Positions 34,135 to 37,100 of a DNA stretch of 64,000 nucleotides are shown piece after piece. The DNA comes from Felis catus (lineage: Eukaryota), in the NCBI RefSeq assembly GCF_018350175.1, contig NC_058381.1, positions 60,636,001 to 60,700,000 of the forward strand, given 5' to 3'. The notes below the pieces were generated by a model that did no database searches, was not told the DNA's origin, and saw nothing but the letters and a program-made list of their open reading frames with translations. A program made the position numbers and the translations under genes. Within the stretch, counting starts at the first letter, position 1. Each line of letters starts with the position of its first letter.

Positions 34135-37100
34135 TCAGAAGTCACAGTCACTCTCCCTCTCGGGAGGCACCTCCTGCCGACGCCTGGCCTCCAGGAAAGC
34201 CAACTCCTTGGCCTCCTTCTTCTGGTTCCGGGCCTCGTATTCTAGCCTGGGGGCCAGGCCAGGGTGAGCCGCGTGCCCGGGCCTGGGCCTCATGGCTCTC
34301 TGCGCCCCCCCCCCCACCCCGGGCCCCCCCCCCCACCTGTTCTTGATGATGCGCTGGACGATGAGGTCCGTGGTAAGGTCGTTCCCGCTGTCGATCTGAC
34401 AGAAGATGCCCCTTCTCTTGGGCTCCTGGGGGCCAACGGGGAGGGGAGAAGATGAGGACCCTCCTCTGGAACCTGAGGACACTGCCCAGCTGCCCGGGCC
34501 CGGGGGGCCCTCAGGAAGACCAGAACGGGTGCCGTCAGTCCTGCCTGTTAGCGACCTGCCTCGTCATAGCGGGGTGCCACTGGACTGGCAGTCCTCACCC
34601 GGCCTGGGTCCCAGCACTACCCACCTGGTAAGGGTCTGAGCCGTCCTTGTCGGGCACGATCTCCGTCTTCCCGTGACACACCAGGTCCACCTGGGGAGGG
34701 AGCAGGGATCAGGGAGCCCGCCCCCACCCCCACCCCCGTCCCCCCCCGCCGGCACTCAGGGCCCTCCTAGGGAGAGGCTGCAGCCGTGTTCTCAGCCTGG
34801 CCTCCCCTGCGACCTGGCCCGCCAGCAGCCTCACCTTAAAGTGGTCCAGGAGCTCCGCTGTGACCGAATATGGGGCCCCGATCACCACTTCCGACACGTA
34901 CTACGCAGACACGGAGCACAGGTGGTTAGCTAGGAGCCTGCCCGGCCAGAGGGTGCCGGGAGAGGGCTCTCGCCGCTAAGGAAGCAGGGCCTGGGGCGGC
35001 AGCATGGTGGGGCTGGCCGGCCGGAAGCCCAAGCCTCCTGGATGCCCTGGGACCATGAGCCTGGGAAGGAGACACCACCCAGGCCACCCGCCTCGGCACG
35101 TACCCGGCAGGCCAGCACGCTGAGGGTCCGCTCGTGCAGGTTCATGATGGGGTAGTTCTTCCCCTTGTAGTGGTTGACCTCCTAGGGCCAGAGCGAGGTC
35201 GGGTGAGCAGGCAACCCAGGGCGGGTGAGGGCTGTGATCCCCCAACGGTCCCTTGTGGGTGGGGCCGCCCCGGTCCCCAGAAGAGGCCCCGGTTTGTGTC
35301 CTCCGCCTCCACCAGCATCCAAGGCCTCACCTCCTGTGGGCCCCCCGACCCAACCTCCACCCCAGGAACCCCCGCGGGCCCCACACCCTATCCGCTGTCC
35401 AGGGAGTGAGACCTGGTCAAAGTGCAGGCCAGCGATGACGTAGGGCCTCTCTGCCAGGCCGTGCACCTTCTCCAGGAAGTCCACGTGGCCGATGTCCATG
35501 CCGCAGTTAAGGAGCAGGTAACAGAACCGGGGGCTCCGGCCGGCTCCCTCACGCTCCACCCCAGTCTGGGGGCCCGTGGAGTCAGTGAGGCCCCTCTGGG
35601 TCCCGGGGCCCGGTGGTACAGACGTGGCTATGCAAAGAGAAGGCCCAGGACGGGGGCGACCTTCCCACTAGGTCCCAGAGGATACGGAAAAGGTCAAAGG
35701 CGCCAGCCACGTAGATGACCGTCTCCCCTGGCTGGGGTTCTTTCCCAGAAGCAAACTGGATGATCTTCTGGGACGTCTGCAGGAACTGTGACACCCCCGT
35801 CCAGGGGTTCCGTCCCCCCGGGCACTGTAAGCCGAGAGGGGTCTGGTCGGTGACACGCCTCGCAGGCACGTCCTTCACCTGTCCCCACCCCCGAGCCCCT
35901 CCTCTGAGTCTGGGGCTGCCCACACCTGCCTGCCCGGCTGTTCTGGGAGCAGGCAGCAGGGACCGTGGACCAGAACCCGAGCCCCAGCCGCAGCCTGCCA
36001 GCTCGCTCGACCGTCTGTGTGCCGGACGGTGGGGGCCCGGCGGGCCACGCCCAGTCCATTCCAGGGCCAGGCTGGGTAAGGTCCCTGTGACCAGCAGGAC
36101 ACGGCTCCACCCCATGGTCACGACAGGCACTGCGGCCAACAAGGCCAGGGCCTGACAACTGGCCCGCAGGTAGACGCGGCCCCTGTGGGGATCCAGCACC
36201 CTGAGGCCACCTTCTGGTCACCTGGGAGGAGCCTTCGGAGGAAAGCGTCTTCTTCCTTCCCAGGTGTCAGGTGAGGGGGTTACAAAGGGAGAGAGGACCA
36301 GGCCGTCCAGTTAGAGGCCACCAGACAGGGGCCGCTGTGACCGGCCAGTTTGCCAGGCCCGGTGGTCAGTGCCCAGCCAGGGCGCAGAAGGCAGGGGGCT
36401 GGGTGAGGGGCCTGGCCGGCCTTTCCCCAGGGGCGGCCCGGCGGGGGGACGTCAGTGCTCACCTTGCCAAAGCTGTCTGCGTATTCCCGGTACTCGGAGG
36501 ACATCTCCTGAACAGAAGGATGCAGGATGTTGAGGGGCCTCGCCCTCCAGACACGACCAACCCCAGGACCCCCAAGACTCACTGTCCCTCACACAGGGGT
36601 CAGGACACGGCAGGCTGGGTGCTCCCTCGCTCCCAGCGGTGTCCTCAGCCCTGGGAGGTTGAGGATGCCACCCAGGTCCCCCACAGACTCACCTCACAGC
36701 TGTGATGCGCCTTGGTCACCAGCAACATACGGCCGACGAGGTCTGTGGTGGACACGCCCTGGGTGCGCCTGCACTCTCTGGGGACAGAGGTGGGGTCAGG
36801 GCTCGCGTCCTGGACACGGTCGAGAGGCCCCACCTCCGGCTCACCCCAGCCCCCCGCCGTGCCGCGTGCAGACCAGAGAGCGGGAAGGCCGCGGTGCTTT
36901 TATCAACTGAAGGAAATGACAGAATAGAGGAAAAATGTTGCTAAACCCCAAGCGTGAGGCGCTGGGTGGGCAGGCCAGCCTCGGGGAGGCGGCAGCTCCG
37001 GCCCCCGCCGCACCCCGGACTCTCAGGTCTCGCCCTGCGGCGCGTCCTCTGCCAAGGGCGTGCCGGGCCGCGCCGGCCTTCTGGGTTAGTCACCGGCGAC

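Follow-up and report, generated by a model that had tools for sequence, protein, structure and literature searches.

Here, we identify a stretch of 58 nucleotides in the PCYT2 gene of the domestic cat as the remnant of exon 7, the cassette exon of the alpha isoform. Of the features expected of a functional alpha exon 7, homology to the linker peptide and a GT donor are present, while the AG acceptor and the 54-nucleotide length are missing. Because no in-frame exon of 54 nucleotides exists at this position, the locus is unable to encode the 407-aa alpha protein. We propose that the remnant is simply skipped to give the 389-aa beta form; we consider this the likeliest outcome, and would put its probability at roughly 0.75. 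PCYT2 is described as a 14-exon gene whose exon 7 is skipped in beta (PMC3588000; this and the other papers cited by number below are represented by excerpts).

The PCYT2 locus and its exon 7 remnant

The window analysed here is a 64,000-nucleotide stretch of Felis catus DNA, and the features discussed below are collected in Table 1. The beta product read from the window, minus exon 12, matches 367 of 367 residues of a named Felis catus entry (P0191), and differs by one residue from Canada lynx and by two from lion. P0191 contains two stretches of PF01467 (CTP_transf_like), as expected of a PCYT2 orthologue with its two cytidylyltransferase domains. Upstream of PCYT2 lies an exon of the SIR2 family, in the place of the SIRT7 neighbour, and fused SIRT7-PCYT2 models in other mammals indicate that SIRT7 adjoins PCYT2 there too. 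The gene is single-copy in the cat genome (G000), where 11/11 matches to the bear protein fall at one locus. The end of exon 6 and the start of exon 8 are both in phase 0, so that any cassette between them must have a length divisible by three. Intron 6 (36462-36280, minus strand) is itself open in frame after exon 6 for 61 codons and meets its stop in the TAA of the dead acceptor, so that its retention would yield a truncated product with one domain.

Table 1. Features of the cat PCYT2 locus in window coordinates (a slash marks an exon-intron boundary)
Feature	Position	Strand	Remarks
PCYT2 gene	34135..40183	-	13 intact coding exons with an open frame, giving the 389-aa beta form
Exon 6	36463..36507	-	ends ..DSFGK, phase 0; donor AAG/GTGAGC
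Branch-point-like CTAAC	36310..36314	-	about 32 nt before the old acceptor; motif match only
Surviving pyrimidine tract of the exon 7 acceptor	36282..36297	-	14/15 pyrimidines at -18 to -4; 48 nt upstream free of AG
Lesion 1: acceptor dinucleotide AA	36280..36281	-	read in the window and in 4/4 runs
Remnant of alpha exon 7	36222..36279	-	58 nt versus 54 expected
Lesion 2: purine-rich stretch with four extra bases and three AAG triplets	36246..36262	-	candidate acceptors for 34, 30 and 27 nt
5' arm of a perfect 9-bp stem	36258..36266	-	exact reverse complement of 36227-36219; predicted paired
3' arm of the 9-bp stem	36219..36227	-	contains the exon 7 donor CAG/GTG
Weak downstream donor AAG/GTGGCC	36205..36213	-	exon end 36211, 11 nt downstream; with the first internal AG gives an in-frame 45-nt exon; by enumeration only
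Exon 8	35686..35824	-	starts CPGGRNP, phase 0

The first-pass annotation of this stretch had read an AA acceptor, a 58-nucleotide exon, and a surviving pyrimidine tract and donor, and the minus strand bears out each of these; the donor CAG/GTGACC is intact, with the intron beginning at 36221. We scored candidate sites with a splice-site matrix built from the 16 acceptors of this window, with the AG itself excluded, and compared them with 251 decoy AGs. On this small window matrix, the 16 real acceptors, each left out in turn, score -0.5 to 11.4, and the old exon 7 acceptor scores 6.6, a value reached by 0.8% of the decoys. In models of bear, fox and dog, exon 7 starts with the residue that matches the start of the remnant, which implies that an AG once stood where the window now has AA.

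Homology to the PCYT2 alpha exon, also claimed earlier, is supported by 15/18 residues matching the bear exon once four bases are set aside, and the first six residues of the remnant (PPHLTP) are identical to those of bear (P0124). The earlier description of the second lesion as a duplicated GAAG holds for the presence of four extra bases and fails for their place, which is ambiguous: removing GAAG leaves 14/18 matches to bear, while setting aside the next four bases, starting at 36254, 36253 or 36252 (span 36254-36249), gives the best value of 15/18. The latter alignment is superior in that residue 9, which is acidic and conserved, is preserved.

To place the remnant among other mammals we used 322 proteins, drawn from an exon 8 search (the best 120 of 506 proteins) and from members of three clusters. 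The linker between exons 6 and 8 is readable in 241 of the 322, with no insert in 147, an insert of 18 residues in 85 and other lengths in nine. The 18-residue exon occurs in primates, rodents, bats, even-toed ungulates, bear, sloth, anteater and golden mole, and is annotated in canids too; its presence in such diverse placental groups suggests that it is likely ancestral to placentals. Over 34 distinct triples, the mean pairwise identity of exon 7 is 0.73, versus 0.94 for exon 6 and 0.97 for exon 8. Judged by these protein sequences, exon 7 is loosely conserved, far less so than its neighbours.

The only other copy of exon 7 found in the cat genome is a fragment of about 130 nucleotides (L002, 1501-1631; G000:C41, core 39300386-39300461; L026), which contains the PCYT2 exon 7 region with flanking intron and sits antisense in an intron of RNPS1. 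Its core is 84% identical over 76 nucleotides, about 18 nucleotides across the acceptor are missing, and GG stands in place of the donor GT; it looks like an old captured piece. The fragment has 13 nucleotides where the window has 17, in agreement with a gain of four, and the ancestral acceptor is not readable from it because that part is absent. We looked in the cat genome G000 for a processed PCYT2 pseudogene by which to date the loss and found none, and among read-through frames in database proteins none crosses both lesions informatively. Pattern matches in metagenomes were set aside, as 11/11 are short and without flanking homology.

The intron between exons 8 and 9 (35685-35496, minus strand) is unusual in its own right. 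It carries signals of the minor spliceosome (a GTATCCT start and a CCTTAAC branch), and its end is GG, not AG. The exon 8-9 junction builds the first histidine of the second HXGH motif, and this histidine is present in the named cat entry. Read-through frames of other mammals have T-D or A-D at the intron end in 12/13 cases, which fits CAG, and the window has M-D; Iberian lynx and one felid-like contig have T-D, which is ambiguous. A minor intron is listed for human PCYT2 (PMC7644725), and GT-GG minor introns and switching between human and mouse have been reported (PMC1557818, Tables 2-3). From these sequence signals, cat PCYT2 appears to splice a minor intron at a GG end.

Predicted splicing of the remnant

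Our model for the remnant is one of failed exon definition. With no AG following the intact branch motif and pyrimidine tract, exon 7 would not be defined, and the spliceosome would skip the remnant and join exon 6 to exon 8, producing the short beta enzyme only. The next AGs lie in the purine run and would make poor acceptors, and the predicted 9-bp stem would hide the donor. If splicing occasionally fell on the old site or on the first internal AG, the frame would shift and the transcript would be exposed to nonsense-mediated decay: inclusion of 58 or 34 nucleotides places stops at codons 242 and 234, respectively, 390 nucleotides ahead of the last junction. As a rule, a stop this far ahead of the last junction triggers decay. 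The intact branch motif, tract and donor fit either a recent loss or residual use.

Assembled contigs from four sequencing runs list no splice joints of any kind, the exon 6 to exon 8 joint included, and barely cover the exons. Two contig boundaries were considered and set aside. A contig of run X1 starts exactly 30 nucleotides inside exon 6, as expected if the assembly graph forked at the exon 6 donor, and continues unbroken through the remnant; it was not counted as bearing on skipping, as contigs drop minor paths. A contig of run X8 ends at 36200, at a possible donor (AGG/GTGCTG); this is likely the end of coverage, as there is no continuation on the intron side and other X8 ends mark no splice site.

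The stem around the donor was noticed after the fact, which should temper the observation that a stem of 9 bp is reached in 9/2000 shuffles and that none of the 11 other PCYT2 donors tested exceeds 5 bp. The stem is completed by a glycine codon at a place where 23 of the 27 distinct mammalian versions in our exon 7 peptide comparison have alanine, so that it is probably derived. The donor of the constitutive exon 2 is predicted to be equally hidden (0.14 versus 0.17 unpaired).

The remnant could still contribute to PCYT2 control as a non-productive switch, in which low-level inclusion through the 34-nucleotide AG, or through an AA edited from A to I and read as AG, sends transcripts to decay and thereby tunes PCYT2. 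At the old acceptor the strong tract, the branch motif and the zone free of AG have all survived, the 58- and 34-nucleotide forms both carry early stops, and the exon 7 region folds better than shuffled sequence (z -2.57). Non-productive exon 7 variants are also reported in human and mouse (PCYT2 gamma; PMC3588000, PMC9100777), and editing-dependent GT-AA acceptors are known in ADARB1, NRK, HOOK3 and COG8 (PMC4176328). Like those acceptors, the cat site has a strong pyrimidine tract ending in AA; unlike them, it has no good predicted duplex over the AA, inclusion is out of frame, and the contigs contain no edited base (0/4 depart from AA there, although minor variants are lost from contigs). 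The AA is predicted to be unpaired (pairing 0.02 and 0.00), in the internal loop of an irregular hairpin, and its best predicted distant partner is weaker than that in 21 of 25 control segments. We therefore set aside rescue of the AA acceptor by editing, which has no duplex support in prediction, and regard the switch as a whole as unlikely.

A further possibility, put forward in the first-pass annotation, is that a shortened exon survives through an internal AAG. Such an exon would include either 30 or 27 nucleotides spliced to the old donor, keeping the serine-rich half of the linker, or 45 nucleotides of new sequence, and would give the cat an alpha-like isoform of its own. Enumeration of 151 acceptor-donor pairs gives 18 in frame, and the 30-, 27- and 45-nucleotide pairs are among them and free of stops. 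With the old donor, which is intact, the internal AGs define exons of 34 (from 36255), 30 (36251), 27 (36248) and 11 nucleotides (36232). A CTGAC motif lies 12-19 nucleotides ahead of the AAGs, and a shifted donor in fox, dog and one bat model implies that exon borders can move. Against these points, the sequence upstream of the AAGs is 27-53% pyrimidine, and the acceptors score -15.5 (34 nt), -14.3 (30 nt) and -21.6 (27 nt), values that 72-96% of the 251 decoys equal or exceed (72% for the 30-nucleotide and 96% for the 27-nucleotide site). The first AG in the series yields the frameshifting 34-nucleotide exon ahead of either in-frame choice, and the first AAG and the donor both lie inside the predicted hairpin. 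Moreover, in the 241 of 322 proteins with a readable linker we see no inserts 9, 10 or 15 residues long. The proposal of 30- and 27-nucleotide mini-exons is thus not supported, and we think it quite improbable that any such exon is used.

One could go further and suppose that cats are PCYT2-alpha nulls in which the dead exon has been rewired, with the AA, the purine insertion and the donor-hiding stem together creating a cat-specific in-frame mini-exon or a decay exon that tunes the rate-limiting step of PE synthesis, in a gene whose minor intron apparently ends in GG. We offer this as a long shot; plain skipping to beta is the reading that we carry forward.

Drift, selection and the spread of the loss

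Under plain skipping, the lesions would have arisen in the cat lineage once it had separated from that of dogs and bears, with one lesion disabling a weakly constrained exon and the remaining changes probably reflecting drift. This would probably make the cat an ordinary case of the loss of a loosely conserved optional exon.

Alternatively, the loss may have been selected, if dropping alpha and the alpha/beta heterodimers suited feline lipid metabolism, or affected the choline/ethanolamine pathway fed by a feline virus receptor, FLVCR1. In most mouse tissues the main transcript is reported to be alpha (bioRxiv 10.1101/2023.12.15.571825), as it typically is in humans too (PMC6821184), with beta dominating in some cancer lines (PMC9100777), and the AA, the frameshift and the stem all point in one direction. 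A dead exon, however, gathers changes by drift, and exon 7 is also absent among the listed entries of mustelids and pinnipeds (8/8), horse and rhino (7/7) and the horseshoe-bat group (6/6). The biochemical evidence is divided. The isoforms of mouse are reported to differ in Km (318 and 140 uM), with alpha fourfold more active (PMC3588000); mouse beta is elsewhere given as twofold more active (PMC13565840); and the human isoforms, tested as recombinant proteins, hardly differ, with comparable activity for CDP-ethanolamine and Km values of 181.2 and 171.2 as printed (PMC9223686, Table 2). The kinetic difference that the earlier annotation attached to the alpha and beta forms was thus overstated, since the published values disagree. 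Taken together, we judge a selected loss highly improbable.

The bases themselves recur across runs. All five sampled sequence words of the stretch are present in 20 of the 24 listed runs (nine studies), and contigs of the four runs that were aligned (4 of the 20, from four studies) span the acceptor, the extra bases and the donor with 0 differences. Outside the lesions (at 35553 and 36168), three of these four runs depart from the window, and so are not mere copies of it. At intron position 36168 three letters are seen: A in the window, C in run X9 (at low depth) and T in run X1. The extra bases do sit in a short repeat, an error-prone place, and only four runs were aligned, the other 16 of the 20 being known by words only, but exact identity of 4/4 runs over both lesions refutes an assembly error, and makes it scarcely credible that we are seeing the variant of one animal or breed while most cats carry a normal alpha exon.

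Within the cat family, exon 7 appears in 0/9 felid entries, four of which join exon 6 directly to exon 8 (cat, lion, Canada lynx and puma) and five of which are uninformative; these counts are among the members listed (15 per cluster, where clusters have up to 257), and one beta-like cluster supplied three of the four that are informative. The protein entries are compatible with a felid-wide loss, the DNA having been seen in this genome and in four apparently near-identical runs. Run X6, whose label is organism B, was left out of the dating, since it may be either another felid or cat sequence that is labelled differently. The hyena entry skips exon 6, and so is uninformative on exon 7.

Among caniform entries, exon 7 is in frame in 1/2 from bear and 4/7 from canids. 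The in-frame models of bear, fox and dog indicate that the lesions postdate the split between cats and dogs. Three of the four canid models carry an 18-residue extension, and one includes the whole next intron. We had considered dog as a second loss, and dropped this idea once the in-frame canid models were found. In fox and dog models (P0256, P0257, P0260, P0282), exon 7 is longer by 18 residues, reaching a later donor, and one red fox model retains the following intron; the main entry for dog has the beta sequence and bears no isoform label. On these database models, canids may have remodelled the alpha form. In two pangolin models (P0073, P0074), exon 7 is replaced by 31 residues encoded at the end of the intron preceding exon 8. 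Across the listed entries, the absence of exon 7 from several groups suggests that mammals may have lost it repeatedly.

Isoform choice in the cat and in known systems

If our reading is correct, cats are healthy although they lack PCYT2 alpha, a form that the field takes as universal in mammals: exon 7 in alpha is described as retained by all mammals in the excerpt of PMC3588000. No earlier report of exon 7 loss in cat PCYT2 was found in the literature searched, which covers few subscription journals. The solved human structure is of the beta form, without exon 7, and this structure together with the comparable human recombinant isoforms (in the excerpt of PMC9223686) argues that beta alone is a working enzyme. 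Alpha would then probably be dispensable, a useful if unsurprising conclusion. The importance of the 18-residue linker and of alpha/beta heterodimers could be judged from the cat as a natural test, and alpha-specific reagents would be unsuited to work on feline lipid disease. We regard the importance of the loss as modest, since exon 7 is weakly conserved, may be missing in other mammal groups, and has disputed effects on kinetics.

The cat locus shares with the exon 7 splicing of human, mouse and rat the gene, the exon position, the phase and the peptide family, and its beta frame is intact. It differs in that exon 7 lacks an AG and is 58 nucleotides long, so that the choice between alpha and beta is gone. 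Canid variants (arctic fox X1/X3, a dog UniRef model and red fox X1) resemble the cat in that exon 7 is unstable in another carnivore family; according to the database models, however, canids have kept the acceptor and the frame and moved the donor, whereas a GT is absent from the corresponding downstream position of the cat window. Finally, lineage-specific exon loss through the disabling of splice sites is already recognised as a mechanism (bioRxiv 10.1101/009282, citing Alekseyenko 2007, in excerpt). The cat case resembles it in leaving a homologous remnant with a dead splice site inside an intron, and departs from it in removing an isoform that has been studied biochemically, rather than an unstudied exon.
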